DNA of 64,000 nucleotides from Methyloligellaceae bacterium (GCA_050633205.1 JBOEGA010000020.1:1387-65386), one strand, 5' to 3'; counted from the first letter of the stretch, positions 1,514 through 56,254 are shown. Program-made: numbers and translations. Notes: generated by a model not told the origin, from the sequence alone.

Positions 1514-2734
1514 TTGGTACTTGCAATTATGGTTGGGGAAAATACTTCTGCAGATACGCAATGCCCTGCGTGTTACGCAAAACATACTGAAATCATCTAT
1601 TCAATCAATAACATACCGGTGCAAAGCTGTATTTTGCTTGATACTGAGGCAGAAGCACTGGAATACCCGTCCAGAGACCTTCAGCTGGCAGCCTGCAGAA
1701 CCTGCGGCTTTGTATTCAATCCGGTCTTCGATGAAGAAATCATGGACTACACGTCCAAAACTGAAGAGTCTCAACATTTCTCGGGAACTTTCAGTCGTTT
1801 TGCAAAAAAACTTGCTGAGGAAATTGCTGAAAAATGTGATCTGGAAGGTAAGTCAGTCCTGGAAATCGGCTGTGGTAAAGGAGATTTCCTGAAAGAATTC
1901 TGCTCTCTGAAGCCTTGTAAAGGATTGGGGATTGATCCCGGTTATTATGAGAACAAGGAGCGTGTAGATGAAGACAAATCAGATATCGAATTTATAGTAG
2001 ATTATTTCGGCCCGGAATATGAGCATCTTGAAGCTGATATCATAATCTGCAGACACACGCTGGAGCATGTCGCAAAACCGGCAGAATTTGTGAAAGACAT
2101 TAGAAATTGCATTGGCAATAAAAAAGCTGTATCAATATTCTTTGAAACCCCTGATGCAGAGCGTGTGTTTTCGGAGGGAGCTTTCTGGGATATATACTAT
2201 GAACACTGTAACTATTTTACACGTGAAACTCATGCCCGGTTGTTCAGGCAGCAGGGTTTTGAAGTAACAGAACTGGGGCTGATGTATGATGATCAGTATA
2301 TTTACCAGTATGCAATTCCTTCAGAAAATAACGATAAGGGAAAAACAGCAGAAGAAGATTCTTTGGATCAGTTGCACAGGCAACTCCTTGCTTTTCCTGA
2401 AAAAATACAACAGGTAAAAGATCACTGGAGTAATATCGTTAAAGAATATCACTCCTCAGGTAAGCATATTGCTGTCTGGGGCGGTGGTTCCAAATGTGTA
2501 GCATTCCTGACGACACTCGGGTTTAAAAGTGAAATTTCCTGGATAGTCGATATCAACCCGTTTAAGCAGGGGAAATATGTTCCGGGCACAGGACACAAAA
2601 TAGTTTCTCCGGAAACTCTCAGTGAAAGCAATACTCCTCCGGATCTGGTAATAGTAATGAATCCGATTTATGTAAAAGAGATCCAGGCTCAGTTAAATTC
2701 TTTAAACATTCATCCTGAAATAATGGCTTTATAA
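1514..2734 (+). CDS. SAM-dependent C-methyltransferase with N-terminal zinc ribbon and C-terminal C-methyltransferase domain (TylCIII/NDP-hexose C-methyltransferase-type architecture)
   Basis: It has the zinc ribbon CPACY...x...CRTCGFVFNP, the SAM motif VLEIGCGKGDFL, and a Rossmann-like C-terminal segment HIAVWGGGSKCVAFL. The track start is TTG 1514. ATG 1529 (MVGENTSADTQCPAC) is more likely and matches the paralog's N-terminus. Confidence 0.8.
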   Translation: MVLAIMVGENTSADTQCPACYAKHTEIIYSINNIPVQSCILLDTEAEALEYPSRDLQLAACRTCGFVFNPVFDEEIMDYTSKTEESQHFSGTFSRFAKKLAEEIAEKCDLEGKSVLEIGCGKGDFLKEFCSLKPCKGLGIDPGYYENKERVDEDKSDIEFIVDYFGPEYEHLEADIIICRHTLEHVAKPAEFVKDIRNCIGNKKAVSIFFETPDAERVFSEGAFWDIYYEHCNYFTRETHARLFRQQGFEVTELGLMYDDQYIYQYAIPSENNDKGKTAEEDSLDQLHRQLLAFPEKIQQVKDHWSNIVKEYHSSGKHIAVWGGGSKCVAFLTTLGFKSEISWIVDINPFKQGKYVPGTGHKIVSPETLSESNTPPDLVIVMNPIYVKEIQAQLNSLNIHPEIMAL

Positions 2735-2735
2735 A

Positions 2736-3941
2736 ATGACAGCATCACCTCAAAATAATTGCAAATGCCCACAATGCCATTCCGATAATACGCAGATCAT
2801 TTTTAGTTACAAAGATGTACCTGTTTTATGTTGTCAGTTGTGGCCGGACACCACGGAAGCAAGGAAAGCTCCTCTGGGAGATATGGATCTTCTGTTGTGC
2901 AAAAATTGCGGTCTGATTATTAACAGTGCCTTCGATGAAAATCTGATGAAATATACTGCTGGCTACGACAATGCCTTGCACTTTTCTCCAAGGTTCCGTG
3001 AATATGCCGAGGAATTGGGGGCACGCCTTGTCAGGGATTATGATCTGAAAGACAAAAAGATCGCCGAGATTGGTTGTGGTGATGGTTACTTCATGGATCT
3101 GATGGTTCGTCATGGTGCAGCATCAGGCGTTGGTTTTGATCCTTCAATCAAAGGCATGGAAGACAAAACAACCGAATTCACGACATCGGGAAAAGTGCAG
3201 ATCATTACTGAATATTTCCGCACAGATCATCTACCCCATGAATTCGATGCAATAACCTGCCGTCATGTTTTAGAGCATTTGCCGGATCCCGGAGCATTCC
3301 TTAGAGATGTACGAAAAACGATCGGTGACAAGGACTGCATTTTATATTTCGAGGTGCCTAACGCCCAGTGGCTTCTGGAGTCTCACAGTATCTGGGATGT
3401 AATCTATGAGCACATCACCTACTGGACTGCTCCTGCAATAAGAACGTTATTTCTGCGTGCAGGCTTTGAGCCGGTTTCAATTACAACAGGTTACAATGAC
3501 CAGTTCCTTCGTATAGAAGCCAGACCGGGCAAGGGCGATCCTGACGCTGTACCAACATCGCAGGAAATTGAAGCACTGACAAAAACTTCAAATGAGTTTA
3601 CGGCTGCTGCCACAGGTCAGGTCGAAAAGTGGGAAACCAGGCTGAAAGACCTTGCGGCCAAAGGGCAGAAAGCAGTTGTATGGGGAGCAGGAGCAAAAGG
3701 CATCACATTTATTTCTGTGCTTGACCATATCGAAGAAAGCGTTGCAGCTCTGGTTGATATCAGTTACAGAAAACGCGGAAAATATGCGCCCAAACTTGCT
3801 GTCCCGGTGGTTCATGTTGATGATATGAAAGAGGTAAACCCGGCTCTTGTTTTAATCGCTAACGAGATATATTACGATGAAATCAAACAGACCCTGGCAG
3901 ATATCGGCCTGACACCGGAGTTTGACGTAATCACCGGATAA
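2736..3941 (+). CDS. Paralogous zinc-ribbon SAM-dependent C-methyltransferase
   Basis: It has CPQCHS...CKNCGLIINSAFD, IAEIGCGDGYF and KAVVWGAGAKGITFI, and is collinear with the upstream ORF. It starts 1 nt after the upstream stop. Confidence 0.8.
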   Translation: MTASPQNNCKCPQCHSDNTQIIFSYKDVPVLCCQLWPDTTEARKAPLGDMDLLLCKNCGLIINSAFDENLMKYTAGYDNALHFSPRFREYAEELGARLVRDYDLKDKKIAEIGCGDGYFMDLMVRHGAASGVGFDPSIKGMEDKTTEFTTSGKVQIITEYFRTDHLPHEFDAITCRHVLEHLPDPGAFLRDVRKTIGDKDCILYFEVPNAQWLLESHSIWDVIYEHITYWTAPAIRTLFLRAGFEPVSITTGYNDQFLRIEARPGKGDPDAVPTSQEIEALTKTSNEFTAAATGQVEKWETRLKDLAAKGQKAVVWGAGAKGITFISVLDHIEESVAALVDISYRKRGKYAPKLAVPVVHVDDMKEVNPALVLIANEIYYDEIKQTLADIGLTPEFDVITG

Positions 3942-3958
3942 ATAAAAACAGGAATAAC

Positions 3959-5128
3959 ATGTCCAAAGACACCGGAGCTCCCGCTGCTGTAAAGTGGAGA
4001 AGAAAGAACCCATATATGGCGACGGTTCTGACAAACCGTCTCCTGTCAGGAGACGGGTCTGCAAAGGAAATCCGTCATTTTGAATTTGATCTGGGAGACA
4101 GTGGAATTACCTACAGGCCCGGAGATGGCTTTGGCGTGATACCGCTTAACGATCCGGCACTGGTGTCAGACATTCTGCAACGCCTGAATTTACCCGCAGA
4201 AACACCGGTTCCCGGAAAAGACACAGATCTCGCAACATATCTGACAACAACCATGGAGGTCAGCAAACCTTCATCTGCTTTCCTCAAGGCAGTCGCCGAA
4301 AAAGGTAACAATGAAGAAATCAGTCGTCTTCTGGAAAATCGTGACCGCGAGGCAATAGAAGCCTACCTCTGGTCAAAAGACTGCCTCGACCTTCTGAATA
4401 TGCATCCTGAAATTTCATTCAGTGCAGAAGAGTTTGTTAAACTGCTCAGGCCGTTGATGCATCGGACCTATTCAATATCGTCCAGCCCGTCCAGAACTCC
4501 GGATCAGATACATACAACCATTGCTTGTGTCAGATATCATTCTCACAACCGTGATCGCGGCGGCGTATCATCAACATTTCTGTCAGATCGCGTGAATCCC
4601 GGTGACAAGGTGGGTGTTTTCATGGTCCCCAACAGGAACTTTCAGTTACCTGAAGGTGACTCAGACGTAACTGGCGGTGACCACAAGTCACTGATTATGA
4701 TCGGTCCCGGAACCGGAATAGCACCATTCCTTTCCTTCCTCCACGAACGCCAGATAACTGGAAATAAAGGGAAAAACTGGCTTTTCTTCGGCGACCAGCA
4801 CCGCAAAACCGACTATATCTACCAGTCAGAGATCGAACAGTTCCAAAACTCCGGAATCCTGACAAAACTAGACCTCGCCTTCTCCCGAGACCAGTCAGAA
4901 AAGCTCTATGTTCAGCATAAAATGGCGGAAAACGGCGCAGAACTCTACCGTTGGATACAAGACGGAGCCTATATCTACATATGCGGCGACGCCTCAAGAA
5001 TGGCCCCCGACGTCCACGAAGCCCTAACCGAAATCCTAATAACCCACGGCAACAAAACCGAAGACGAAGCAATAGACTATCTGGAAAAAATGCAGCTGGA
5101 AAAACGCTACCTTCGCGACGTTTACTAA
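3959..5128 (+). CDS. FAD/NADPH-binding ferredoxin-NADP reductase-type module of a CysJ-like diflavin reductase, lacking the flavodoxin domain
   Basis: Motifs are RKNPYMATVLTNRLLSGDGSAKEIRHFEFDL, RTYSISSSP, GPGTGIAPFLSF, YICGDASRMAPDV and the C-terminal RYLRDVY. It is collinear with residues ~215-589 of the ORF at 11523..13292. Confidence 0.85.
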   Translation: MSKDTGAPAAVKWRRKNPYMATVLTNRLLSGDGSAKEIRHFEFDLGDSGITYRPGDGFGVIPLNDPALVSDILQRLNLPAETPVPGKDTDLATYLTTTMEVSKPSSAFLKAVAEKGNNEEISRLLENRDREAIEAYLWSKDCLDLLNMHPEISFSAEEFVKLLRPLMHRTYSISSSPSRTPDQIHTTIACVRYHSHNRDRGGVSSTFLSDRVNPGDKVGVFMVPNRNFQLPEGDSDVTGGDHKSLIMIGPGTGIAPFLSFLHERQITGNKGKNWLFFGDQHRKTDYIYQSEIEQFQNSGILTKLDLAFSRDQSEKLYVQHKMAENGAELYRWIQDGAYIYICGDASRMAPDVHEALTEILITHGNKTEDEAIDYLEKMQLEKRYLRDVY

Positions 5129-5170
5129 CCTTATTAGTCAGAATTATTTACCCTGAAAAACGCTTGATTC

Positions 5171-5194
5171 GGGCTGTTTTGAACAAAACAGCCC
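5171..5194 (+). terminator. Stem-loop downstream of the reductase gene (GGGCTGTTTT-GAAC-AAAACAGCCC)
   Basis: A perfect 10-bp stem with a 4-nt loop lies 43 nt after the stop. There is no clear T-tract afterwards. Confidence 0.45.
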
Positions 5195-5595
5195 GGCTGC
5201 GATCATTTGCACCATATCCCAAAATAAAATACAGCGTTTTTTAAGTTATTGAAAAACAATGAATATCCTGAATTCTGTTATCCTAAAGCCTGCATTCTAT
5301 GCGCAATATGAATAGTTTATCTTGTCTATTACAAAAAAATCTGCCATTTTACGCGAGCGTTAGGTCAGCGTTGCTGTCCTTTAGTGAAGTTGGCGGGTTT
5401 ATGATAGTAATGTCATTAATGTCTGATACAATAGCATTACTACCATGAAAATTTTGACTTTATCTACAGATACCGGGAACGCCTAACGTCTCAGGATTAT
5501 TATCGAAACAGCAATAAATCTCGCAATACTGCGAAAAACAGATGTTGTACTTCTGATATTTCATATTTGACAATCTTGGTATCTCTGTAATTCTT

Positions 5596-5610
5596 ATGCA
5601 TACTATGCAT
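5596..5610. promoter_or_regulatory. Perfect 15-bp palindrome ATGCATACTATGCAT in the long gltB-like upstream region; candidate operator
   Basis: Read directly from the sequence. No regulator is assigned. Confidence 0.25.
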
Positions 5611-5925
5611 AAAATATGTGTCGGCTGGTAAATACAGGACATACACCATTTCAGCTGTGGCTTTTACCAAAAGGTATAAGACCTGTGATATGGTGTCAGA
5701 GGTTAATTAGAGTCCTGTAATCAATTGCTTTTGTGGAATGCAGATAAGGGCTCTGTATAACCGCAGAAGCTTCTTGCGTCCGGATCATACATCCTGGTGA
5801 TGAGAGCAAACAGCTGACACCCTTGGCTAAAATATAGAGGAAATCCTCAACTGGAGGAAATCCGTAGTTTTTAACATAGCTCAGTACGAAATATCTGAGA
5901 ATGGCAAATGGGTGCCGGACATAGC

Positions 5926-6018: not shown

Positions 6019-9000
6019 ATGTCTGCGAATAGTAAAAATCCTTACGGCATTTACGACCATGACTTGGAAAAAAGCAGTTGTGGTGTTGGATTCATAACCC
6101 GTAAAGATAGTGTTCAAAGTCATGATGTCCTTCAAAAAGGGCATGAAGCTCTTTGCTCAGTTCCCCATCGGGGCGGTATGTCGTCCCAGGGCGTTGGCGA
6201 CGGAGCCGGGATCAGTGTAGATCTTTCTCTTAATTTCTTTAGAAAGATCACTGGCATAGAGACTTTGGAGCTTGGTAAATTTGGTGTTGGAAACTTTTTC
6301 ATGCCGGATGACCATTCGAATGATGCTCAGGCAGAAGAACTTATTGAAAATGTTCTGGGTAAATTAGGCCTGAAAACACTATTTAAACGCGATGTTCCTG
6401 TCGATAACAATGCAATTCGCCCGGCGGCTGTAAAAGACCAGTTTCCTATACGCCAATGGGTGTTTGCGGCCCCTGAAACTTTCTCAGAAGGGCAGACTTT
6501 TGATCAGTTAATCCACGAAGCTTTACTGGAAATTGAGAAAGAAGCTTATACTGACCCCGCTCTGTCAGGGTTGTATCCGGTTTCATTAAGTGCCCACACA
6601 CAGGTATATAAAGGCCGTCTGAGTTCCGATGAGGTTATGCCTTATTTCTGCGATCTGGTTGATCCGGAACATACAATCCATACCATGTTCTTTCATACCA
6701 GGTTCTCAACCAATACTGACCCCCATCCGACAATGGCACAGCCTTTCCGCCTCATGGCGCATAATGGTGAGCTGAATACCGATAAAAAGAGCCGCCTCTC
6801 TGAAGCTGCCATTGCTCGTACTAAAAATAGGAAAATAATTGCACCAAAAGGGCAGTCTGACAGTTCAAGACTGGATCAGACATTAGAGCGCCGTTTAATT
6901 GAGGATGATCTGGATATTGTTACTGCTGTGGTAGCAATGATGCCTCCTGCATGGGAAAATGATACGACAATATCCCCCGCAGTCAGAGATATGTTAGAAT
7001 ACTTCTCTCTATATGAGGAGAAAAATGACGGCCCTGCCGCTCTGATTTTTGGTAATGGTGACGTCGTTGGAGCTCGTTTGGACCGTTTGGGCTTAAGGCC
7101 TCTGAGAACTGTTGAAACAGATGACTATCTTTGTGTCATGTCGGAAGCAGGACAAATTGACTTTCCACCTGAATCTATAAAAAGCAGAGGTCGTATCGAA
7201 TCTGGTGGAATGCTTTTCTATGATCACAATGAGAAGCGGTCATATACAACAGATGAAGCTCTGGAAATGCTTGCTGCACGCAATGACTATAAAACATTGC
7301 TTGAACAGGCACGCGTCAATATCAATGATCTTGAAGAGACAATTACTGAAAAAGAATTCCAGCTTGCTCATAAGAAAGAAGACCTGAATTCTTTGCAGCG
7401 CTACGTTGCATATTCTCATAATCAGGAAAGCTTCAAATTCCTGATGGATCCGATGTTAAGCACAGGTGCTGAAAAAATCTCGGCTATGGGCTATGGCACG
7501 GCAATTAATACTCTGTCTGATCAGGAAGGCGGTATTTCAAAATACTTCTCCCAGAGATTTGCTCAGGTAACTAATCCGCCTCTCGATAGTCTTCGCGAAG
7601 CAGACGGCATGACATTACGTGTTGCATTAGGAGCAAAGCCAAAGTTTGACGAGGGCAAAACTCAGCAGATTGTCATCAACTCACCAGTCTTGCATTGGCA
7701 TGAACTTCGCAAGATCGAAGGTCAGAACAGAGTTCCATGCAAACGCTTTGAAATGCTGTTTGTTCCGGTTGCTGATGACGTGGAAGCAAATGCTGATGCA
7801 TTGGAGCGGGCTGTTGATGCCTTATGCGACCAGATTGAAATTTTTGCCCGGCATATAGGCGGTATCGCAATTATTTCTGACAGGCATATCAATAGCAAGT
7901 TTGCAGCTATCCCTCATGTCCTGGCTATTTCAGCAGTCAATCAGCGCTTGATTGAAGAAGGGTTGCGTTTCCGTATTTCGCTTATCGTCGAAAGCGGTCA
8001 GATCGCATCATCACACCATATCGCGACCACACTTGGCTTCGGTGCATCTGCTGTATATCCGTTCGCCGTACAGCTTCGGGCTGAAGAAAAATATGCAAGT
8101 GAAACAATAAAGGCATTCGCGCGTTTCGTTAAAGCTTCCGAAAAATCTTTAATGAAAACAATGGGTAAGGTGGGGCTTTGTACGGCAGAAAGTTATATCG
8201 CCGGCGAGTTCTTCGAGCCAAATTTTCTGAATACAAATGATCCGGTTCTGAAAAGATACTTCCCGAATGTTCCAACTCCTGTTGGAGGTGTTGGTTTTAA
8301 TGTTGTCGCAAAGGCTGCAAGAGACTGGCATTTTAGTGCCAGACAGGTCCAGCAGGAAAAAGATATTCCAATTCTCGGATTGTTCAAGGAGCGCAGTGAA
8401 GGTGCTGGCCATTCATTTGGTACGACAGCAGTCCGTGGCTTCGTTGACATGACGGAAGAAAAAATCTCGTACGCTGATAACGATGAAGTTAAAGGCGATG
8501 AAGATGCATTGCGTCTTATGCCCCTTGCGAACCTGGAAGATGCTTTTGGCCTGAACGATACGGCATATCGTTTCTCCGGCTTTAACAAAAGAACACCGGA
8601 AGAAATCAATAACTTTAAGGTTACCAACGGTTACCGCGATTTCTCAAGAATGATGGCAGAGGAACGCGCAAAGCGCCCATCAGCTCTACGCGATGTTTTG
8701 GATTTACCGGCAAATGTCAATTTTGCCCGCACAGCAGAAGAGTTTACCCGTTCAATGGCACGTCACTCGCTTCAGGGGAACAATGAGTTTCTTGTAAGTG
8801 GTTTGACAAATGAAGAAATTGAAAAAGGCAGGTTCCGTCTGACATTAACCGGGTCTGTAGGATCAAGCACTGAAAGACTGATTGCCCTTGGTACATCTTT
8901 TGTTGAGCGCTTCGGTACAGATATTCTGGATCGTCAGGTAACAGATGAAGATCTGACGATTGTCGTTACAGGCCGTACACTGGAATACTTCTCGCTTCTA

Positions 9001-11526
9001 AAAGCTGCTCCGGAGAGTTTGCCTTTGGAAGAAGTTCAGCGGGCAAGTGAAATTGCTAAAACTATGGCATCAGGTGCGATGAGCCATGGTGCTCTTAACG
9101 CACCGGCACACGAAGCTGTTGCTCACGGAACAAATATTGCCGGCGGTTTGTCCAACTCTGGAGAGGGTGGAGAACACATCTCTCGCTATGGCACAATTCG
9201 TTCGTCAAAAATCAAGCAGTTTGCATCAGGTCGTTTCGGTGTATGGGCCGGCTATCTTGCTGACCCGACACTGGAAGAGCTGGAAATCAAAATCGCTCAG
9301 GGTGCAAAGCCTGGTGAAGGTGGTCAGCTGCCAGCTCCAAAAGTAACTGTTGAAATTGCTGCTGCCCGTGGCGGTACTCCGGGGGTTGAGCTTATCTCAC
9401 CCCCTCCGCATCACGATACATATTCAATCGAGGATCTTGCACAGCTGATCCACGACTGTAAGGCTGCGCGTGTCAAGGTGATTGTAAAACTCGTATCTTC
9501 CGAAGGTATAGGAACGATTGCTGTTGGCGTTGCAAAAGCCGGTGCAGATGTAATCAATGTTGCCGGTAACACTGGTGGTACCGGTGCAGCTGCGGTAACC
9601 AGTCTGAAAAATACTGGCCGTGCAACAGAAATAGGTCTTGCCGAAGTGCATCAGGCATTGTGTGCGAATGGTATTCGTCAGAAAGTGGTTCTGAGAACAT
9701 CTGGTGCACACCAGACGGCCAGCGATGTTATCAAGTCAGCTCTTCTGGGAGCAGACAGCTTTGAGTTTGGTACTACTGCATTGATGATGTTGAAATGTGT
9801 TATGGCCAAGAACTGCAACATTAAATGTCCTGCTGGCCTGACAACAAATCCGGAAGTATTTGAAGGTGACCCAAGAGCTCTTGCTCAGTATCTTCTCAAT
9901 CTTTCTCATGAAACCCGGGAAATCCTTGCTGAGATCGGCATGAAGTCTCTTCGCGAAGCCAGAGGTCGCAGTGATCTGCTTCACCTTCTGGATCATCCAA
10001 AAAATATTGGTCAGCTCGACTTACGTAAAATGCTGACTGTTGTTCCTGAAAAAACAGTAGAGACGCCTGTCTATCTGGAAGCGAATTATGACATTGATGA
10101 TAGCTTCCTGCCTGAATTTAAAAAGGCAGTCATAAGCCATGGACAGGAATCTGTTGAAATTGGCAACAATGTAAAGCTGAACAACCGCAACAAGAGTGTT
10201 GGTGGTCAGTTGGCAATTGATATTGAGCGCATGTTGAACCACGAGCTTAACGAAAGTCAGCTTAAATCATCTGCAGCCATCAGTACTGATATCCGGGGAC
10301 GTAGTTTCCTGAAACCTGATAGTGTAAAAATTACGACTTCAGGGGCTGCTGGTCAGTCTTATGGTGCTTTCAGTAATGACGGAATGCACATGACACATAC
10401 CGGAACATGCAACGATGGTGTTGGTAAAGGCGCTTGTGGTGGTGTTATTGCTGTACGCTCACCTGGTGGTGGCTCGGAAGAGGCTGGTGGCAATGTGCTT
10501 ATCGGAAACTTTGCTCTATTCGGTGCATCTGGTGGGCGTCTGTTTGTAGAAGGGCAGGCTGGTGACAGATTTGCTGTTCGGAACTCTGGCGCTACAGCCG
10601 TTGTTGAAGGCGTTGGTGACTTTGCTTGTGAATATATGACAAACGGTGCCGTTATAAACCTTGGAAGTTTCGGTAAAGGCTTTGCAAATGGTATGAGCGG
10701 CGGTTTTGCTTATCAGTATGATCCATACAGGCTTCTTGAGAAGAAATACAGTGAGGACAGTGTTCGTCTGGCAAATCTTGGTGGTGATGATGAGCACGCA
10801 AAGTTTCACCAGGCTGCTGTAAAAACTATGCTTGAATGGCATGTTGAAGCTACCGGCTCCAGAAAAGCGCAATGGATACTGGATAACTGGCAGAATGAGT
10901 GTGCGAACTTCACCTATGCAATGCCAAGAGCACTTCTACTGTATCAGGATAGTGATGCCATTCTCACCGCTAGTTCTCGCAAGGGGTTGATTGACGAATT
11001 GTCCAGTGCAATCTCTGGCCATCAGGTTCGCAAGTTCAAGCTGGCATACCGCGATAATAAAGTACTGATGGGTGGCGCTGTTCCAGGTCAGGGCGAAACA
11101 AACTCCGAGACCATGTACACTCTGTTAAATAACTACACAGTGTTGCACATGGCTCAGCAGATTGCATTATCCAGAATGCCCAAAGATACAGAAATTACTG
11201 ATCCGGCAGTTCATGGAACTGTACGTAAGCTTATCCTCACAGAAGACTTTGGACTTATGAGCAGGTTATTGGGTTATTCGCGTGAAGCTCTTCAACGCTA
11301 TAGCGATGAGGAACTGGCTGTATTGGTGGGCGATAAGCGTCTGAGAGATTATAAAACCGCCTTGAGCAGAAGAAATGTTCTCTCAATGGACAGTCCGGGT
11401 ACATACGGATGGATTTTACATCAGGACCGTAAGAATGTTGCCAAACTGGGTGAACTGCCGAGCTTTGAGGAACTGTTTGCGCAACTGGCAGTAAAAGATA
11501 TGTCAATGATGGCGGTGCAAGGGTGA
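6019..11526 (+). CDS. gltB: Glutamate synthase large-subunit (GltB/Fd-GOGAT) homolog, atypically long at 1835 aa
   Basis: The RBS AGGGAGGAG precedes ATG 6019. A propeptide runs up to the Ntn Cys (EKSS/CGVGFI), followed by PHRGG. Central-domain and FMN-domain motifs are present (GAMSHGALN, SNSGEGGE, KIAQGAKPGEGGQLP, PPPHHDTYSIEDL). The cluster motif is KCVMAKNCNIKCP. The GXGXG beta-helix reads GNFALFGASGGRLFVEGQAGDRFAVRNSGATAVVEGVGDFACEYMTNG. Confidence 0.9.
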   Translation: MSANSKNPYGIYDHDLEKSSCGVGFITRKDSVQSHDVLQKGHEALCSVPHRGGMSSQGVGDGAGISVDLSLNFFRKITGIETLELGKFGVGNFFMPDDHSNDAQAEELIENVLGKLGLKTLFKRDVPVDNNAIRPAAVKDQFPIRQWVFAAPETFSEGQTFDQLIHEALLEIEKEAYTDPALSGLYPVSLSAHTQVYKGRLSSDEVMPYFCDLVDPEHTIHTMFFHTRFSTNTDPHPTMAQPFRLMAHNGELNTDKKSRLSEAAIARTKNRKIIAPKGQSDSSRLDQTLERRLIEDDLDIVTAVVAMMPPAWENDTTISPAVRDMLEYFSLYEEKNDGPAALIFGNGDVVGARLDRLGLRPLRTVETDDYLCVMSEAGQIDFPPESIKSRGRIESGGMLFYDHNEKRSYTTDEALEMLAARNDYKTLLEQARVNINDLEETITEKEFQLAHKKEDLNSLQRYVAYSHNQESFKFLMDPMLSTGAEKISAMGYGTAINTLSDQEGGISKYFSQRFAQVTNPPLDSLREADGMTLRVALGAKPKFDEGKTQQIVINSPVLHWHELRKIEGQNRVPCKRFEMLFVPVADDVEANADALERAVDALCDQIEIFARHIGGIAIISDRHINSKFAAIPHVLAISAVNQRLIEEGLRFRISLIVESGQIASSHHIATTLGFGASAVYPFAVQLRAEEKYASETIKAFARFVKASEKSLMKTMGKVGLCTAESYIAGEFFEPNFLNTNDPVLKRYFPNVPTPVGGVGFNVVAKAARDWHFSARQVQQEKDIPILGLFKERSEGAGHSFGTTAVRGFVDMTEEKISYADNDEVKGDEDALRLMPLANLEDAFGLNDTAYRFSGFNKRTPEEINNFKVTNGYRDFSRMMAEERAKRPSALRDVLDLPANVNFARTAEEFTRSMARHSLQGNNEFLVSGLTNEEIEKGRFRLTLTGSVGSSTERLIALGTSFVERFGTDILDRQVTDEDLTIVVTGRTLEYFSLLKAAPESLPLEEVQRASEIAKTMASGAMSHGALNAPAHEAVAHGTNIAGGLSNSGEGGEHISRYGTIRSSKIKQFASGRFGVWAGYLADPTLEELEIKIAQGAKPGEGGQLPAPKVTVEIAAARGGTPGVELISPPPHHDTYSIEDLAQLIHDCKAARVKVIVKLVSSEGIGTIAVGVAKAGADVINVAGNTGGTGAAAVTSLKNTGRATEIGLAEVHQALCANGIRQKVVLRTSGAHQTASDVIKSALLGADSFEFGTTALMMLKCVMAKNCNIKCPAGLTTNPEVFEGDPRALAQYLLNLSHETREILAEIGMKSLREARGRSDLLHLLDHPKNIGQLDLRKMLTVVPEKTVETPVYLEANYDIDDSFLPEFKKAVISHGQESVEIGNNVKLNNRNKSVGGQLAIDIERMLNHELNESQLKSSAAISTDIRGRSFLKPDSVKITTSGAAGQSYGAFSNDGMHMTHTGTCNDGVGKGACGGVIAVRSPGGGSEEAGGNVLIGNFALFGASGGRLFVEGQAGDRFAVRNSGATAVVEGVGDFACEYMTNGAVINLGSFGKGFANGMSGGFAYQYDPYRLLEKKYSEDSVRLANLGGDDEHAKFHQAAVKTMLEWHVEATGSRKAQWILDNWQNECANFTYAMPRALLLYQDSDAILTASSRKGLIDELSSAISGHQVRKFKLAYRDNKVLMGGAVPGQGETNSETMYTLLNNYTVLHMAQQIALSRMPKDTEITDPAVHGTVRKLILTEDFGLMSRLLGYSREALQRYSDEELAVLVGDKRLRDYKTALSRRNVLSMDSPGTYGWILHQDRKNVAKLGELPSFEELFAQLAVKDMSMMAVQG

Positions 11527-13292
11527 AGAATAAAATGAAGATACCATACATCCCCGAAGATGCTCCTTTTAATGAGGATCAGAGAGCCTGGCTGAACGGT
11601 TTTTGGGCCGGGTTTAACTCAAGCATTATTATGACTGGTCAGGTAGGAGATGCGCCCGGCCAGACAACCAAAATTGTCAATATTCTATATGGAACACAGA
11701 CAGGTAATGCGGAAATACTGGCAAATGAAGCTGCAGATGCAGCAAAAGGCGCTGGTATGACACCTGTTGTTGAATCTCTTGAAGATGTCGACCTTGAGCG
11801 TTTTGCAGCAATGGAGCGTGTTATCATCGTAACCTCCACATATGGTGAAGGTGAAATGCCTGATAATGCACAACTGTTCTGGGAAGCATTAACGGCAACT
11901 ACAGCCCCTCGCATGGAAAGCATGAATTACGCCGTTCTGGCGATAGGTGACACTGCTTATGATGAATTCTGTGAAGCCGGAAAGCTGTTCGATATTCGTC
12001 TGGAGCAATTGGGTGCGAACCGTGTAGCACCACGTATTGACTGTGATGTGGACTATGAAGACCCTGCTGCTGCCTGGATCGAAGAAAACCTTCCAAAAAT
12101 GATTGAGTTCGGTTCTGATGATGGACCAGCAGATGGAGCTCAGCTTGCTACAACTGGCGGGTCTGCCGAAAAGTCGAAATGGACGCGTAAAAATCCATAT
12201 ACTTCAGTTGTCTCAACAAACAGGCTTTTGTCTGGAGAAGGCTCTGCAAAGGAAATCAGGCATTTCGAATTTGAACTGGGTGATAGCGATATCAAATACG
12301 AAGCTGGTGACGCACTTGGTGTAATGCCGGTAAATAATCCGGAACTGGTATCAGATATTCTTGGCCGTTTGAATCTGTCCGCTGATGCGGCAGTATCAGG
12401 TCAGGATGCAGCTCTGGGAACTTTGCTCACAAACGGTTTTGAAATTTCAATGCCTTCTAAGGATCTGATAAGAGCAATTGAAGAGCGTGCCGGAAATGAT
12501 GAATTATCTCATATTGTTACTCATGGTGACAAAGAGGCAATGGACAACTTCCTGTGGTCGAAAGACAGTCTGGACCTGTTGAATTTAAATCCCGAAGTTT
12601 CATTCACGGCTGATGAATTTGTTGGCTTATTAAAACCTCTGCAACACAGAGCCTATTCAATATCATCCAGCTCTTTGCGCAACCCAGACCAGATACACCT
12701 GACCATAGCAAGTGTACGATATCATTCACATGGCCGGGACCATGGTGGTGTTTGTTCAACCTTCCTGGCTGATCTGGTCAGTGAGGGGGATACAGCAGGA
12801 ATATTTCTGTCTCCAAATAAAGCTTTCCGTGTCCCTGAAGATAATGATGTTCCAATGATTATGGTTGGCCCTGGTACCGGTATTGCTCCATTCCGGGCGT
12901 TTCTTCATGAGCGTCAGGAACGTGGCGCTAAAGGAAAGAACTGGCTCCTGTTTGGTGATCAGCACAGATCCTGCGATTACATCTATGAAGATGAAATTGA
13001 AGAGATGGCAACTGCCGGAGTCCTTCATAAGCTTGACCTTGCTTTCTCTCGTGATCAGGCCGAAAAAGTTTATGTTCAGACGCGTATGAAAGAAAGTGGT
13101 GCTGACCTTTATGCCTGGCTGGAAGAGGGCGGTTACTTTTATATATGTGGTGATGCAACCAGAATGGCAAAAGACGTCGATAAGGCGTTGCATGACATAG
13201 TTATGGAACATGGCGGCAGATCTGAAGAGCAGGCAGTCGAGTATGTGAATGCTATGAAAAAGGAAAAACGTTATCTTCGTGATGTATATTGA
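11523..13292 (+). CDS. CysJ-like NADPH diflavin reductase (flavodoxin-like FMN domain plus FAD/NADPH FNR module)
   Basis: Motifs are ILYGTQTGNAE, TSTYGEGEMPDNA, RAYSISSS, GPGTGIAPFRAF, YICGDATRMAKDV and RYLRDVY. GTG 11523 overlaps the upstream TGA (11524-11526), and the first ATG is at 11535. The N-terminal segment reads IPEDAPFNEDQRAWLNGFWAGF. Confidence 0.85.
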   Translation: MKNKMKIPYIPEDAPFNEDQRAWLNGFWAGFNSSIIMTGQVGDAPGQTTKIVNILYGTQTGNAEILANEAADAAKGAGMTPVVESLEDVDLERFAAMERVIIVTSTYGEGEMPDNAQLFWEALTATTAPRMESMNYAVLAIGDTAYDEFCEAGKLFDIRLEQLGANRVAPRIDCDVDYEDPAAAWIEENLPKMIEFGSDDGPADGAQLATTGGSAEKSKWTRKNPYTSVVSTNRLLSGEGSAKEIRHFEFELGDSDIKYEAGDALGVMPVNNPELVSDILGRLNLSADAAVSGQDAALGTLLTNGFEISMPSKDLIRAIEERAGNDELSHIVTHGDKEAMDNFLWSKDSLDLLNLNPEVSFTADEFVGLLKPLQHRAYSISSSSLRNPDQIHLTIASVRYHSHGRDHGGVCSTFLADLVSEGDTAGIFLSPNKAFRVPEDNDVPMIMVGPGTGIAPFRAFLHERQERGAKGKNWLLFGDQHRSCDYIYEDEIEEMATAGVLHKLDLAFSRDQAEKVYVQTRMKESGADLYAWLEEGGYFYICGDATRMAKDVDKALHDIVMEHGGRSEEQAVEYVNAMKKEKRYLRDVY

Positions 13293-13459: not shown

Positions 13460-13990
13460 ATGACAATTGAAGGCCAGAATATGGATCAGGCAGCTCCCGG
13501 CGAGCTGGTTAATGAGCCTACTGAGGAGCAGAAACGTGAGGTGCTTGAAAAAAGGCTTCATGCAGCTGCATTTGCAGAAATCGTTAGTGTATTAATGCGC
13601 TCACCTGCCCACAACCAGATGCCTTTAAGAAATCTGGAAGGCCATGTCGTCCCTCCGTTTCTCACCAAGCAGTTCTCAATTGCACGTGCAAAATCCAAAG
13701 AAGGGCATTTTCCAATATTTCCGGTTGGTGTTGCGCTATGGGCGAGCGTATCAGATGAAATTGACAAGCGCCTTTCGGAAAATCCTGATGCACCTGTCCA
13801 GCTCAAGCCAAATGAATGGAAGAGCGGAGATAATATATGGGTAATTGATATTGTAGCCCGCCCTGAGGTTGGTACAAAAATTCTGGATGATCTAAAGAAA
13901 AGCGCTTTCAAGGGCAAGCAGTTCAAAATGCGGGTAGCTGGCACTGATGGCACAAGAAAAATTGAAACCATGTCTGGTGAAGCGGCATAG
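13460..13990 (+). CDS. RTX-toxin-activating lysine acyltransferase family protein (HlyC/CyaC-like)
   Basis: The RBS AGGAGG precedes the ATG. The segments FAEIVSVLMRSPAHNQMPL...VALWASVSDEI...NEWKSGDNIWVIDIVARPEVG parallel the HlyC segments I recall (LGEIVWLWMNSPLHRNW...CSWANLSLENE...DWTSGDRKWFIDWIAPFG). The His and Asp positions are conserved. Confidence 0.65.
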   Translation: MTIEGQNMDQAAPGELVNEPTEEQKREVLEKRLHAAAFAEIVSVLMRSPAHNQMPLRNLEGHVVPPFLTKQFSIARAKSKEGHFPIFPVGVALWASVSDEIDKRLSENPDAPVQLKPNEWKSGDNIWVIDIVARPEVGTKILDDLKKSAFKGKQFKMRVAGTDGTRKIETMSGEAA

Positions 13991-17319: not shown

Positions 17320-19083
17320 ATGGGCGTAGCTAGTGCTGTTGAATTGACTGTTGATCAACTTCTTACCGATTATTCCAAAAAACGTAAAATAACAGATGAG
17401 AATAAGCCCACGCTTTTCTCCCTTTATGCAGTCGATAATGTCGTTTTATCCTGCGTAAGAAATGCCTATGACGTCTGGGATGTATTTGTTGATGGTCAGA
17501 ATGATACCGGTATTGATGGTGTCGCTGTTACACTAAATGACCAGTTGATAACAAGTATAGAACAGGCTGAGAAAATAATCTCGTCAGAGCGCGAGTGCCG
17601 CACAAAATTTGTTTTCATTCAGGCAACCATGGATCGTGAGTTCAAAAAGCAGAAAATGACTGCTTTTACTTATGGTGTCTGGAGTTTCTTTAAAAATGAA
17701 GATCTGGGGCCGCAGAATGACAGATTGTTAAAAGTCGTCCAGCTCAAGGACCAGATTCTGCAGATGATTGAGGAAAAGGGCTTTGGGCGTCCCGAGATTG
17801 AATTATATTATGTCTCCAATGGCCAGTGGACCGGAGATGAGGTACTGAAAGGTGCCATACGTGGATCAACGGACCTCGTCAACGAAAATAACAGGTTTCG
17901 CCGTGTAGAGTTTATTCCCCTTGATTTTCGTAATATTCTGGATATGCGCAGGACACTGGTCCGTCGTAATGAAGGAAAGTTGCATACCTATGGCTTAAGC
18001 GAGATGCCGGGGATGCCAGGGGTAAGAAAAGCATTTCTTGGTACAGTCATGGCGGAAGACCTGATTTCTCTTATCCGCCACCCCGTACTCAATCGTGTGG
18101 ACCGCAATGTCTTTCTGGAAAATGTTCGCGGATTTCAGGGGAAAGACAATTTTGTAAATGCAGGCATCAATGAAACTCTGAAGCGCCCTGACTCCAGCCT
18201 GTTTCCTCTTTTGAATAATGGTATTACCATTGTATGTCGTGGACACGAAGAGAGCGGACCCAGACTAAGCATCTTTGACTATCAGATTGTCAACGGCTGC
18301 CAGACGTCTACAATTCTGTTTGAGAACAGTGAAGCACTTGAGGGCCAGGATATTCTGGTACCTGCAAAGATTGTTGTTACCCGAAATGAAGATATTATCA
18401 GCCGTATTATTCGGGGAAGTAACAGTCAGACAACAGTTACAGATGAGCACATATTAAGCCTTCACCCTTTCAACAGAAGACTGGCAGAATATTATCGCGC
18501 TATCACCATAGGAAATGGTCGCGAACGGATATATTATGATATCAGGCAGGGGGAATTTGGCAGTAACCCTCAGCTGGATCCAACACGTATCATTACAATC
18601 AGAGAGCAGATACAGAACTTTGCTTCGATGTTTCTGCGTCGCCCATATGATGCAGTAGATCGCCTTAAAACTTTGCGCGATAGCATTCCTGATCATATTT
18701 TCAATCCTGACCATGCGCTGGATCCCTATTATACATCCTCTCTTGCAATGCACCGCTTTCATGCATTAAGGCGCGATAAACTCATAGAGCCTGAGTTCGA
18801 AAACTTCCGTTTCCAGTTGCTCTATATTCTCCGCCATATACTACTGCCCAGAGAGCTTAACCTGAGTAGCTGGCGGGCTGCACCTATCCTTTGCAATGAA
18901 ATGAATAACAAACTGTGCGACCCTGAAGCGTCTGCCAGATATTACCTGAAGGCATGCGAAATCATTAAAAATACAGCAAAAGAAGTTTTTCACGAAGATG
19001 CTTTACCAAGAGAGTTGGCAGCAAGACATTCCTTTACAGATGCTTTGCAGCAAAGACTGAAAAGTAAAAACTACGGGAGTTAA
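17320..19083 (+). CDS. AIPR-family (abortive-infection phage-resistance-like) protein
   Basis: The central signature LLNNGITIVCRG...FDYQIVNGCQTSTILFE matches the AIPR pattern I recall (NNGITI...IVNGxQT). The gene is flanked by AT-rich non-coding DNA. Confidence 0.65.
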   Translation: MGVASAVELTVDQLLTDYSKKRKITDENKPTLFSLYAVDNVVLSCVRNAYDVWDVFVDGQNDTGIDGVAVTLNDQLITSIEQAEKIISSERECRTKFVFIQATMDREFKKQKMTAFTYGVWSFFKNEDLGPQNDRLLKVVQLKDQILQMIEEKGFGRPEIELYYVSNGQWTGDEVLKGAIRGSTDLVNENNRFRRVEFIPLDFRNILDMRRTLVRRNEGKLHTYGLSEMPGMPGVRKAFLGTVMAEDLISLIRHPVLNRVDRNVFLENVRGFQGKDNFVNAGINETLKRPDSSLFPLLNNGITIVCRGHEESGPRLSIFDYQIVNGCQTSTILFENSEALEGQDILVPAKIVVTRNEDIISRIIRGSNSQTTVTDEHILSLHPFNRRLAEYYRAITIGNGRERIYYDIRQGEFGSNPQLDPTRIITIREQIQNFASMFLRRPYDAVDRLKTLRDSIPDHIFNPDHALDPYYTSSLAMHRFHALRRDKLIEPEFENFRFQLLYILRHILLPRELNLSSWRAAPILCNEMNNKLCDPEASARYYLKACEIIKNTAKEVFHEDALPRELAARHSFTDALQQRLKSKNYGS

Positions 19084-45499: not shown

Positions 45500-46804
45500 T
45501 CAGGAGCTTTCCGCCAGCCGGAGCCCTTTGAACTGCCAGCGTTCTTCAGGGCAGAAGAAATTGCGGTAGGTAGAGCGGATATGTCCGTCTGGCGTTGCAC
45601 AGGAGCCGCCGCGCAGCACATATTTATTGCTCATAAACTTACCATTATATTCACCAACAGCGTCCGCTGTAGGTTGAAAGCCGGGGTAGGGTGTATATGG
45701 GCTTTGTGTCCATTCCCATACATCACCAAAAACTTGCAGCAGATCCTGATCCGCACCCGGAACTGCAGGTAAGGGGCGGATAGCCCCGGAACCAAGTGTA
45801 TTGCCAGTAACCGGCACATTTCTGGCGGCAAGTTCCCATTCAAATTCTGTAGGAAGTCTCTTGCCAGCCCATTTGGAAAACGCATCGGCTTCATAGTAGC
45901 TTACATGCGCAACTGGTGCATTAGGATCAACAGGCTGCAGCCCGCGAAGAGACATCTTGAACCAGCTATCGTCTTTACGTTCCCAGTATAACGGTGTCTT
46001 CCAGCCTTCTGACTGCACAATAGACCAGCCGTCATCAAGCCAGAGCGAAACTGTATCGTAACCGCCATCTTCGATAAACTCCAGCCATTCGCCATTTGTT
46101 ACCAGACGGTTAGCCAGTTTGTAGGGGGGCATATAGTGTTTGTGAACAGGTCCTTCCATATCATATGAGAAGCCTGTCCCGTCATAACCGATATCAACAA
46201 GTCCACCATCAAAACTTTTCCAGGATAGTTCAACAAATGACATGTCAACTTCACGTGGTGCGGGGTTTTTATAGGCAGGGCGCAGCGGATTGACTGCAAA
46301 AACTGTCAGTATATCCGTCAGTAAAAGCTCCTGGTGCTGTTGTTCATGGTTGATCCCGAGTGCAATTAACTCGGCAAGTTCAGCAGGAACATAATCTTCA
46401 TACTGGTTGAGTAACTGATGTAGATGCTCATCAACATACAATCTGTAGTTGCGAACTTCCTGAGCTCCGGGACGTGTCAACAACCCTCTGATAGGACGGG
46501 GATGTCGCTCGCCAACAGAGTTATAGTATGAATTAAAACAATACTCAAAGTCCTCATTAAAACGGACATAACCCTTTAAATACCGGGATAGAATAAAAGC
46601 TTCAAAAAACCAGCTGGTATGAGCCAGGTGCCATTTTGTTGGACTTGCATATATAGCTGACTGAACTACCTGATCTTCATCACTTAAGGGAGCTGCAAGA
46701 GAAGAGGAGAGTTCTCTTGTTTGAAATAATTGTTTGCGGAAGGATTGGGCAGAATACTGAACTTTTTCAGCAGTCTTCTGTTCGGTTGGCATGTAAAACT
46801 CCAT
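45500..46804 (-). CDS. egtB: Ergothioneine biosynthesis sulfoxide synthase EgtB (DinB-like plus FGE-sulfatase domains)
   Basis: Motifs are SPTKWHLAHTSWFFE, INHEQQHQELLLTD, VSYYEADAFSKWAGKRLPTEFEWE and VWEWTQSPY.PYPGF...RGGS. Confidence 0.9.
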   Translation of the reverse strand: MEFYMPTEQKTAEKVQYSAQSFRKQLFQTRELSSSLAAPLSDEDQVVQSAIYASPTKWHLAHTSWFFEAFILSRYLKGYVRFNEDFEYCFNSYYNSVGERHPRPIRGLLTRPGAQEVRNYRLYVDEHLHQLLNQYEDYVPAELAELIALGINHEQQHQELLLTDILTVFAVNPLRPAYKNPAPREVDMSFVELSWKSFDGGLVDIGYDGTGFSYDMEGPVHKHYMPPYKLANRLVTNGEWLEFIEDGGYDTVSLWLDDGWSIVQSEGWKTPLYWERKDDSWFKMSLRGLQPVDPNAPVAHVSYYEADAFSKWAGKRLPTEFEWELAARNVPVTGNTLGSGAIRPLPAVPGADQDLLQVFGDVWEWTQSPYTPYPGFQPTADAVGEYNGKFMSNKYVLRGGSCATPDGHIRSTYRNFFCPEERWQFKGLRLAESS

Positions 46805-54721: not shown

Positions 54722-56254
54722 TTAGTTCTGGGTCAAAGTAACAACGCTGCCGCCAGTCTGATTAATGACGGAATTATTCAGATTTCCTGTTCCACCCTGC
54801 GTAATAACAGCAACATTGTTATCATTATCCTGGGTAATTACGGAGTTATTGAAATTGTTGTCACCTGATTGCAGAACATTCGCTACATTCAAGGAGCCAA
54901 ACTGTGTAATATCGCTGGATTGAGTATTACTAAAGCCAGTTTGTTCAACATTAGCCTGATTATTCGCCCCATCTTGTTGTATGACGGAAATATTGATCCC
55001 ATTTTCACTATCCTGCACTACGATACTCTCGTTATCGAGACCAGTTTGCCCAATATAGGAATCATTTGTGTTGGCAAGACCATTTTGGGTAATATTGGCA
55101 ATATTAACATCTCCATCCTGCGAAAGACTGGAAGTATTTATGCCAGCATCAGCTGATTGCTGGATAGCTGCCTGATTATCAAATCCGTTAATAAAGGCAG
55201 ATGAGGTATTGAAGGCCCCTGTCCCTGTTTGAGCAACTGCTGTTGTATTACCTGTTCCAAGCTGTATGGATAGAGAAGTGTTGGAAGTTGAATCTCCATC
55301 CTGAACAATAATGGCGGCATTTGCGCTACCAGCCTGACTGATTTCAGAATCGTTTGTGCTGCCAATACCAGACTGAACCGTGTCTGCGATGTGACCATCT
55401 CCTGTTTGTGTAGTGCGGGAGATATTATTGTTACCAGTACCGTCCTGTGTCACCGTAGCGCTTTGCGCGATACCATCCTGCGTAACCTCAGCATCAGAAG
55501 AAGTGTTGTCACCTGTTTGCAGAATAGTTGCTACACTGGCCTCTCCTGTTTGATCAACAGTTATAGCATTCAGATTATTAAGCCCTTCCTGAGCAACAAT
55601 TGCAGTCTGCGCATTACCATCCTGAGAAATAGCCGCTACATTATTGTTAAACGTTCCATTTTGTGAAACATCAACCGTATTATCATCTCCATTTTGATCC
55701 ACTGTTGCATCATTGGTATTTGCTTCCCCATTCTGATTTATAATTGCAACATTTTGTGCACCGAACTGAGAAACAGCTGAAGTGTTTGTATTACCAGTTA
55801 CACCCAGGCTATCCTGCAAAACAACAGCACTGTTATTATCGCCATCCTGTATGATAGATGATGTGTTAACAGCATTGTCTGTAGCATTCTGCAATACAGT
55901 GGCATCATTATTTCCACCCAGAGTTGCCTGGGTAATACTTGAAGTGTTACTGGATGTATCTGAGGAACCAATCTGATCTACAGTAGCGCTGTTAAAACCG
56001 CCATCAGTACTTTGGGTAACAGTAGAATCATTCAGCCCCCCATTAGCCTGTTGATTGATAATGGCATCACCTGTACCCGCACCAATCTGGTCAATTGTAG
56101 AATTATTTACTGAAGTAATATTGCCGCCAAGGTCCTGGTTGATCGTGGCGGTATTTACTCCGGCACTGTTAACAACTGAATTATTATCTGCAAATGCAGG
56201 AGTGGAGAATGCAATAAGAGCGATTGCTGTAGTAGCAAGCAAGTGACGTTTCAT
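54722..56254 (-). CDS. Secreted curlin-repeat (CsgA-like) protein with ~37 Q-x-G-x-x-N units
   Basis: The signal peptide is MKRHLLATTAIALIAFSTPAFA. The rest of the protein is made of 11-16-aa units such as AIINQNGEANTND, ATVDQNGDDNTVD, VSQNGTFNNNVA and AISQDGNAQTAIV, matching the curlin S-x5-Q-x-G-x2-N-x-A-x3-Q pattern. Confidence 0.75.
   Translation of the reverse strand: MKRHLLATTAIALIAFSTPAFADNNSVVNSAGVNTATINQDLGGNITSVNNSTIDQIGAGTGDAIINQQANGGLNDSTVTQSTDGGFNSATVDQIGSSDTSSNTSSITQATLGGNNDATVLQNATDNAVNTSSIIQDGDNNSAVVLQDSLGVTGNTNTSAVSQFGAQNVAIINQNGEANTNDATVDQNGDDNTVDVSQNGTFNNNVAAISQDGNAQTAIVAQEGLNNLNAITVDQTGEASVATILQTGDNTSSDAEVTQDGIAQSATVTQDGTGNNNISRTTQTGDGHIADTVQSGIGSTNDSEISQAGSANAAIIVQDGDSTSNTSLSIQLGTGNTTAVAQTGTGAFNTSSAFINGFDNQAAIQQSADAGINTSSLSQDGDVNIANITQNGLANTNDSYIGQTGLDNESIVVQDSENGINISVIQQDGANNQANVEQTGFSNTQSSDITQFGSLNVANVLQSGDNNFNNSVITQDNDNNVAVITQGGTGNLNNSVINQTGGSVVTLTQN

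Follow-up and report, generated by a model that had tools for sequence, protein, structure and literature searches.

Which electron donor serves a glutamate synthase (GOGAT) large subunit when the gene that follows it encodes a CysJ-type diflavin reductase and not GltD? The question is raised by a stretch of 64,000 nucleotides from a Methyloligellaceae bacterium (GCA_050633205.1 JBOEGA010000020.1:1387-65386; hereafter the window, in whose coordinates positions are given unless a locus is named). In the window, a gene for an oversized GltB-type protein, termed long GltB here, occupies 6019..11526 (+) and the gene for the reductase occupies 11535..13292 (+). When ammonium is scarce, nitrogen enters biomass mainly through glutamate synthase, whose canonical bacterial form carries 11 iron atoms per protomer. 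The pair was interpreted, with a probability of roughly 0.6, as a two-subunit glutamate synthase dependent on reduced nicotinamide adenine dinucleotide phosphate (NADPH), with the CysJ-type reductase in the place of GltD, and it is probably an undescribed low-iron route to glutamate. An initial annotation of this DNA had taken the reductase for an iron-sparing donor that passes electrons from NADPH through flavin adenine dinucleotide (FAD) to flavin mononucleotide (FMN), replaces GltD and serves a ferredoxin-type GOGAT; the first part agrees with the adjacency and co-divergence of the two genes and the absence of GltD within 10 kb, and the ferredoxin-type assignment was abandoned. No publication on a GltB/diflavin-reductase pair or enzyme was found in the full-text literature searched (subscription literature being outside its scope).

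The gene pair and its distribution

Long GltB (1835 residues) was identified as a glutamate synthase large subunit from its open reading frame (ORF), from Pfam and NCBIfam models and by HMMER comparison with solved GOGATs. The overlapping or abutting stop and start that had been described for the pair are in place: the gltB stop is TGA 11524-11526, the alternative reductase start GTG 11523 gives a 4-nt overlap and a protein of 589 residues, and ATG 11535, 8 nt past the stop, gives a protein of 585 residues, which was assigned to the CysJ type using Pfam, NCBIfam and its identity to CysJ. Across 87 loci, a median of 5 nt (range 2-76 nt) separates the gltB stop from the conserved reductase motif, measured to its first residue, and most reductase starts therefore overlap or abut the gltB stop.

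Relatives were collected using the C-terminal tail of long GltB as a profile. A scan of one genome per species gave at least 564 species with the tail (best identity 65% among the matches listed), belonging to Rhizobiaceae, Brucellaceae, Hyphomicrobium, Methylopila, Methylobacillus, Mycobacteriaceae, Nocardia and Rhodococcus, and a protein search added Stappiaceae, Rhodobacteraceae and Xanthobacteraceae. The hosts include Agrobacterium, relatives of Brucella/Ochrobactrum and Mycobacteroides abscessus, and the long-GltB family spans Alphaproteobacteria, Betaproteobacteria and Actinobacteria. An exhaustive profile search of 1.84 billion representative sequences returned 111 proteins, all of them full-length members of the family or short fragments; the tail stood at the C-terminus of every full-length match.

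The reductase gene lies directly after long gltB in all 86 fetched loci, and in 87 of 87 loci overall, so that the adjacency seen in the window is conserved in related genomes of three bacterial classes. Pairwise identities of the large subunits and of the reductases were correlated with r = 0.92 (2701 pairs). A third gene conserved around the pair was not found in these loci, where neighbours are lineage-specific. The statement that the 64 kb contain no GltD was borne out by tblastn with E. coli GltD, which gave only noise in the window (E ≤ 10), and the same query found no GltD-like coding within 10 kb of the pair in the 86 loci; with E. coli CysI as the query, no CysI-like coding was found in the window or the 86 loci. 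Long gltB and the reductase gene form an obligate unit and are inherited together. Between Actinobacteria and Proteobacteria, copies of long GltB share at least 66% identity, which seems high for such distant phyla and suggests, at the level of sequence similarity, horizontal spread of the whole two-gene module. Most long-GltB members carry the name 'glutamate synthase-related protein' from the Prokaryotic Genome Annotation Pipeline (PGAP), and no model for this architecture was present in the curated libraries.

Large subunit, reductase and proposed electron path

All four GOGAT domains that had been recognised in the 1835-residue ORF were recovered by Pfam, in canonical order: the class II glutamine amidotransferase domain (GATase_2, residues 21-426, E = 1e-90; 6079..7296, +), the central domain (Glu_syn_central, residues 461-733, E = 1.7e-73; 7399..8217, +), the FMN/2-oxoglutarate or synthase domain (Glu_synthase, residues 997-1308, E = 8.9e-109, and by alignment to 7mfm and 2vdc; 9007..9942, +) and the GXGXG beta-helix domain (residues 1426-1590, E = 2.9e-49; 10294..10788, +). 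The catalytic cysteine is residue 21 (CGVGF); it stands behind a predicted propeptide of 20 residues and aligns with the first cysteine of the amidotransferase domain in Pfam and in the solved structures. The FMN domain contains the motifs SNSGEGGE, QGAKPGEGGQLP and SPPPHHDxYSIEDLAQLI as in the solved enzymes (7mfm and 2vdc alignment), in a region that is 93-98% conserved within the family. These stretches presumably hold E903, K972, Q978 and R992 (Synechocystis numbering), which we take to act in 2-oxoglutarate binding and catalysis. Judged by these motifs, long GltB looks catalytically intact. It passes the NCBIfam GltB equivalog NF008730 by a small margin (1063 bits; cutoff 1047), and in the amidotransferase and central domains its identity to E. 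coli GltB is only about 30%.

The assignment to the ferredoxin-type GOGATs (Fd-GOGATs) in the initial annotation was not upheld. Among solved structures, the best HMMER match of long GltB is B. subtilis GltA (845 bits); the alpha subunits of NADPH-type enzymes score 845, 749 and 743 bits, as against 698 bits for Fd-GOGAT. The alignment to Fd-GOGAT (1llw) splits into two stretches and restarts at chain residue 934, as would be expected if long GltB lacked the loop specific to Fd-GOGATs, which we take to comprise approximately residues 907-933 of the Synechocystis enzyme; in the same stretch of the FMN domain, the NADPH-type enzymes have 5 residues more than long GltB. Because of the higher NADPH-type scores and the break of the 1llw alignment at residue 934, long GltB is classed here as an NADPH-type and not a ferredoxin-type large subunit.

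With the GltB/GltD enzymes (EC 1.4.1.13; Azospirillum brasilense 1ea0/2vdc/6s6s, Bacillus subtilis 7mfm), which gave the best matches among solved structures (845 and 749 bits), long GltB has in common the four domains and their order, the cysteine after the propeptide, the FMN-site motifs and the three cluster cysteines, and NADPH is the presumed donor in both. It differs in three structural respects, each of which had been described and was found again. The first is a family-specific insertion at residues ~805-998 (8431..9012, +), at which alignments to solved GOGATs and to E. coli GltB break and which places ~150 residues more than canonical GltB has between the central and FMN domains. The HMMER alignment to solved GOGATs covers residues 8-804 and 999-1648 and leaves a gap between. 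Relative to E. coli GltB, the ~100 extra residues that had been noted between LRDVL (residue 890) and PLEEVQ (residue 1002) are present at residues 895-998, some 55 further ones lie at 817-870, just before LRDVL, and a 20-residue insert lies at 1413-1432. The second half of the insertion is predicted to form a compact small alpha/beta subdomain (AlphaFold2 (AF2); predicted local distance difference test (pLDDT) 85-93 for residues ~900-1010), and the insertion had no match in Pfam or, by sequence, in the PDB.

The second is the tail of ~190 residues that had been reported behind the GXGXG domain. It comprises residues 1650-1835 (10966..11523, +), a length of ~185 residues beyond the end of E. 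coli GltB, is modelled as all-helical (pLDDT 85, predicted template modelling score 0.80) and is no less conserved than the catalytic core or the protein at large. The tail had no Pfam match, no PDB match by sequence and none by fold (best E 0.6, template modelling score < 0.25). Profile comparison of insert and tail with E. coli GltD, GltB, CysI and CysJ gave probabilities < 1%, and relationship to these proteins was rejected.

The third is the cluster-binding motif CVMAKNCNIKCP (9796..9831, +; Cys1260, Cys1266 and Cys1270), which reads C-x5-C-x3-C-P and has one residue fewer than the canonical 3Fe-4S motif. All five distinct solved GOGAT sequences have C-x5-C-x4-C-P, with one residue more between the second and third cysteines, whereas the short form is invariant in 120 of 120 relatives (1718-1849 residues, 64-92% identical; I or V at one position, the three cysteines kept) and is also found in three divergent members. 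Just after the motif, a further 4-5 residues are deleted relative to the solved GOGATs and E. coli GltB.

The reductase has the full architecture of CysJ and cytochrome P450 reductase, including the FMN- and NADPH-binding motifs: a flavodoxin-like FMN domain (Flavodoxin_1, residues 50-177; 11682..12065, +) is followed by FAD- and NADPH-binding, FNR-like domains (FAD_binding_1, residues 217-410; NAD_binding_1, residues 443-549; 12183..13181, +). It shares 36% full-length identity and the C-terminus RYxRDVY with E. coli CysJ, passes NF004859 'sulfite reductase subunit alpha' (468 against 432 bits) and falls under the cutoffs of TIGR01931 (619 against 668 bits) and NF008197 (483 against 838 bits). 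Its N-terminal peptide, IPYIPEDAPFNEDQRAWLNGFWAGFN (11541..11618, +), had been called unusual. The peptide is present: it starts at residue 2-4, and [IV]PYIPxDAPFNxDQRAWLxGFLAGLHSR shows almost no variation among 81 partners, proteobacterial and actinobacterial, the remainder of the reductase being far less conserved (56-66% identical). Its novelty was not sustained, as the TIGR01931 alignment spans it and DQRAWLNGFWAGF of the peptide is related to the motif TQLAWVSGYFWGV at the N-terminus of E. coli CysJ. The corresponding region of CysJ presumably mediates oligomerisation, and the peptide could serve oligomerisation or docking. CysJ, whose partner is CysI and not a GltB-type protein, would resemble the reductase also in feeding an adjacently encoded Fe-S protein; the nearly invariant extension [IV]PYIPxDAPF is specific to the family described here.

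In the scheme that we propose, NADPH would reduce the FAD of the reductase, and electrons would pass from FAD, one at a time, to the flavodoxin-like FMN domain. This domain would dock on the large subunit and reduce the three-cysteine Fe-S cluster, from which electrons would reach the FMN of the synthase site. In parallel, the amidotransferase domain (Cys21) would free ammonia from glutamine; the ammonia would be channelled to 2-oxoglutarate, and the resulting 2-iminoglutarate would be reduced to glutamate. The interface for the new partner is likely formed by the insert (residues ~805-998), the tail (1650-1835), the shortened cluster loops and the invariant N-terminal peptide of the reductase. 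The changes fall where a redox partner would dock, the cysteine motif having lost one residue and the following loop 4-5. What we infer is the complex between the two proteins, the route of the electrons, the substrate and the induction at low iron.

Like Fd-GOGAT (EC 1.4.7.1; Synechocystis 1llw/1ofd), the proposed enzyme would have no GltD and would receive electrons one by one at the 3Fe-4S cluster, from a small redox protein or domain; the donor there is free ferredoxin, and here it would be an FMN domain that is tethered to the reductase and recharged by NADPH. The GltD of NADPH-GOGAT carries two [4Fe-4S] clusters, and their replacement would therefore leave 3 Fe per protomer instead of 11, as reckoned from known cofactor content.

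Iron, nitrogen and competing explanations

Upstream regions were searched for binding sites of iron and nitrogen regulators, and all sites reported here are predictions. IdeR-type sites (consensus TWAGGTWAGSCTWACCTWA as in PMC9505556; ≤ 4 mismatches) were found upstream in 19 of 31 actinobacterial loci, against one site in the other 621 kb. They lie 73-146 nt before the gene in mycobacteria and Nocardia (search span 250 nt). Upstream of the pair in Rhizobiales, a palindrome of the form CTTGACT-N6-ATCA[TA]GA, with arms at least 96% conserved and a variable spacer, contains the RirA-box consensus TGA-N9-TCA (PMC1698941); TTGA-N9-TCAW occurs upstream in 32 of 39 Rhizobiales loci, compared with 15 matches in 790 kb elsewhere. 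The iron-sparing idea of the initial annotation thereby gained independent support from predicted sites, and an iron-starvation role is likely in the lineages concerned because of these IdeR and RirA predictions. In mycobacteria, Nocardia and Rhizobiales the pair appears to be an iron-starvation isozyme. An Agrobacterium locus (L001, 9787-9885) has the RirA-like box about 300 nt before gltB, with a called ORF of 32 residues in the leader between, and no credible riboswitch or leader RNA was found with Rfam (E ≤ 1) in this leader or in that of the window.

Methylobacillus is regulated differently according to the predictions. There fecI-fecR-TonB receptor genes precede the pair, and the strongest Fur-like site in each locus stands at their head; no iron-repressor operator was found just upstream of long gltB. 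A sigma-54 promoter pattern is present upstream in all six Methylobacillus loci (L003, at ~7690-7880, L007, L008, L016, L061 and L074) and in none of 77 other upstream regions, and two NtrC-like palindromes (GCAC-N7-GTGC), 30 bp apart, lie upstream of it. The sigma-54 pattern with paired NtrC-like sites is a signature of nitrogen control, under which the Methylobacillus pair appears to stand. Just past the promoter, the leader contains a stem-loop with compensatory changes across species (for example GCCCGGCgaaagTTGGGG, GCCCGACaaaaaaTCGGGTGC and GCCCCACTaaaatcAGTGGGTG).

The known iron-sparing isozyme pairs, flavodoxin for ferredoxin and fumarase C for fumarase A, offer a functional analogy, in that an Fe-S part gives way to a flavin or iron-free part under an iron repressor. 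They differ in that here the reductase subunit alone would be swapped and the catalytic subunit would keep one cluster, with low-iron induction predicted from operators. In Caulobacter, the genes down-regulated under iron limitation include canonical gltBD (PMC3751524). Expression data on the long gltB operon under iron limitation were not found in the literature searched. Part of the staphylococcal iron-sparing literature reportedly mentions glutamate synthase. Whether the pair constitutes a fourth class of glutamate synthase, beside the NADPH-dependent GltBD, the ferredoxin-dependent and the fused NADH enzymes, in which an alpha-type subunit with docking modules of its own (insert, tail and remodelled cluster loop) is permanently joined to a CysJ-like diflavin reductase, with a 3-Fe enzyme derepressed through IdeR or RirA as the iron-sparing counterpart that would keep ammonium assimilation going while gltBD is shut down in iron starvation, was judged an even question.

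Three other explanations were weighed against the proposed NADPH- and diflavin-dependent low-iron glutamate synthase. The one that fares best accepts a GOGAT with a diflavin reductase and places its selective value elsewhere, in tolerance of oxygen or oxidants or in a pyridine-nucleotide or kinetic regime of another kind, and takes the iron-regulator sites to be lineage-specific additions. The variation of regulation between lineages (IdeR, RirA, sigma-54/NtrC and, in the window, a palindrome, TTATGCATAcTATGCATAA) speaks for it, as does the lack of an iron site in the window and in Rhodococcus. It was nevertheless considered unlikely, as two unrelated iron repressors in two phyla are predicted to control the same operon and as the loss of two 4Fe-4S clusters is the only cofactor difference from the canonical enzyme. 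An iron-related benefit was favoured because the convergence of two unrelated repressors is otherwise hard to explain.

Still less likely, in our estimate, is that long GltB uses a GltD from elsewhere and that the reductase, merely co-regulated, performs another task in iron starvation, for instance the reduction of ferric siderophores or the degradation of haem. In its favour, reductases of the CysJ type donate electrons promiscuously, the predicted iron-regulator sites would fit such a task, a close paralog of the FNR half alone lies upstream in the window among different genes, and in mycobacteria the reductase gene is followed by a HemS/ChuX-like gene. That gene, of a haem-degrading family (Pfam E = 2.6e-16), is limited to one lineage, whereas the adjacency of the pair, with overlapping or near-abutting stop and start, extends to all loci and across phyla. 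The tight co-divergence of the two proteins and the remodelled Fe-S loop found in the large subunit of every member argue in the same direction. The HemS/ChuX-like gene was also counted in support of an iron link for the pair: it overlaps the reductase gene at its 3' end in 14 loci of mycobacteria and Nocardia (e.g. L004, 15158-15994), where it is placed like a third operon member.

The least likely of the three, that the pair reductively aminates another 2-oxo acid or carries out some other glutamine-dependent reduction to which insert and tail are adapted, draws on the noncommittal PGAP label, the narrow NF008730 score, the ~30% identity of the first two domains to E. coli GltB and the methylotrophy of several hosts (GOGAT-like N-methylglutamate synthases exist in methylotrophs), and was set aside given the canonical, highly conserved motifs around the 2-oxoglutarate site, the absence from the loci of a lineage-independent neighbour pointing to another pathway and the predicted sigma-54/NtrC-type control in Methylobacillus, which fits central nitrogen assimilation.

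Several observations count against a low-iron glutamate synthase composed of long GltB and the reductase. The shortened cysteine motif might hold another type of cluster or no cluster at all. The AF2 model of residues 800-1835 (8416-11523), built from 32 family sequences, has a mean pLDDT of 65: the insert subdomain and the tail are of high confidence, and most of the FMN TIM barrel is below 50, so that no conclusion was drawn on the position of insert and tail relative to the cluster. The search for GltD covered the window and the 10-kb surroundings of the 86 loci; a GltD encoded elsewhere might bind this large subunit, and a role as an isozyme beside gltBD is assumed. All regulator sites are sequence predictions, and the left arm of the RirA-like palindrome, TTGAC, also resembles a -35 promoter hexamer. 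Rhodococcus has only weak IdeR-like matches with 6 mismatches. For the window organism itself the iron-sparing idea found no backing in the form of a recognisable regulator site: no Fur box (≤ 3 mismatches) is present in the 890-nt upstream region or anywhere in the window, whose best Fur matches lie away from the gltB upstream region, and that region has no RirA, Irr or IdeR box, no sigma-54 promoter and no NtrC-like palindrome. The closest relative of the window locus (L006, 92% identical) likewise has no Fur, RirA, Irr, IdeR or sigma-54 site.

If correct, the proposed enzyme would give a concrete answer to how cells go on assimilating nitrogen under iron limitation, and a new redox-partner solution for a textbook enzyme. 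The insert, the tail and the N-terminal peptide would then be three unexplored modules, likely a docking system, and the annotation of thousands of genes named 'glutamate synthase-related protein' or 'sulfite reductase subunit alpha' would be corrected.

Other features of the window

The conserved 890-nt region upstream of long gltB contains a perfect 19-bp palindrome, TTATGCATAcTATGCATAA (5594..5612), about 410 nt before the gltB start. The window has no second match to it (chance expectation 0.05), and the palindrome recurs in L006 with one central change. Phylogenetic footprinting against L006 was uninformative, intergenic regions being ~90% identical. The palindrome fits none of the consensus sequences for Fur, RirA, Irr, IdeR or NtrC and is a candidate operator.

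A terminator-like 10-bp inverted repeat, CGGGCTGTTTTGAACAAAACAGCCCG (5170..5195, +), divides the long gltB operon from the genes upstream. These (1514-5128) are two paralogous methyltransferase genes (Methyltransf_23 with a C-methyltransferase C-terminal domain) and then a gene for a FAD/NADPH-only protein of 389 residues, which shares 60% identity with the reductase's FNR half and has neither the flavodoxin domain nor the N-terminal peptide; the two methyltransferase genes and the FNR-only gene are also found upstream of the pair in L006. Directly after the reductase gene lies a homolog of HlyC-type acyltransferases of repeats-in-toxin (RTX) toxins (13460-13990), which is present in L006 as well; no RTX toxin gene was identified beside it. 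A protein of the AIPR (abortive infection phage resistance) family (587 residues, 17320-19083) also has a counterpart in L006. Further along, the window encodes an equivalog of EgtB of ergothioneine biosynthesis (565 bits, 45500-46804) and a protein of 510 residues with curli CsgA/CsgB-like repeats (54722-56254).

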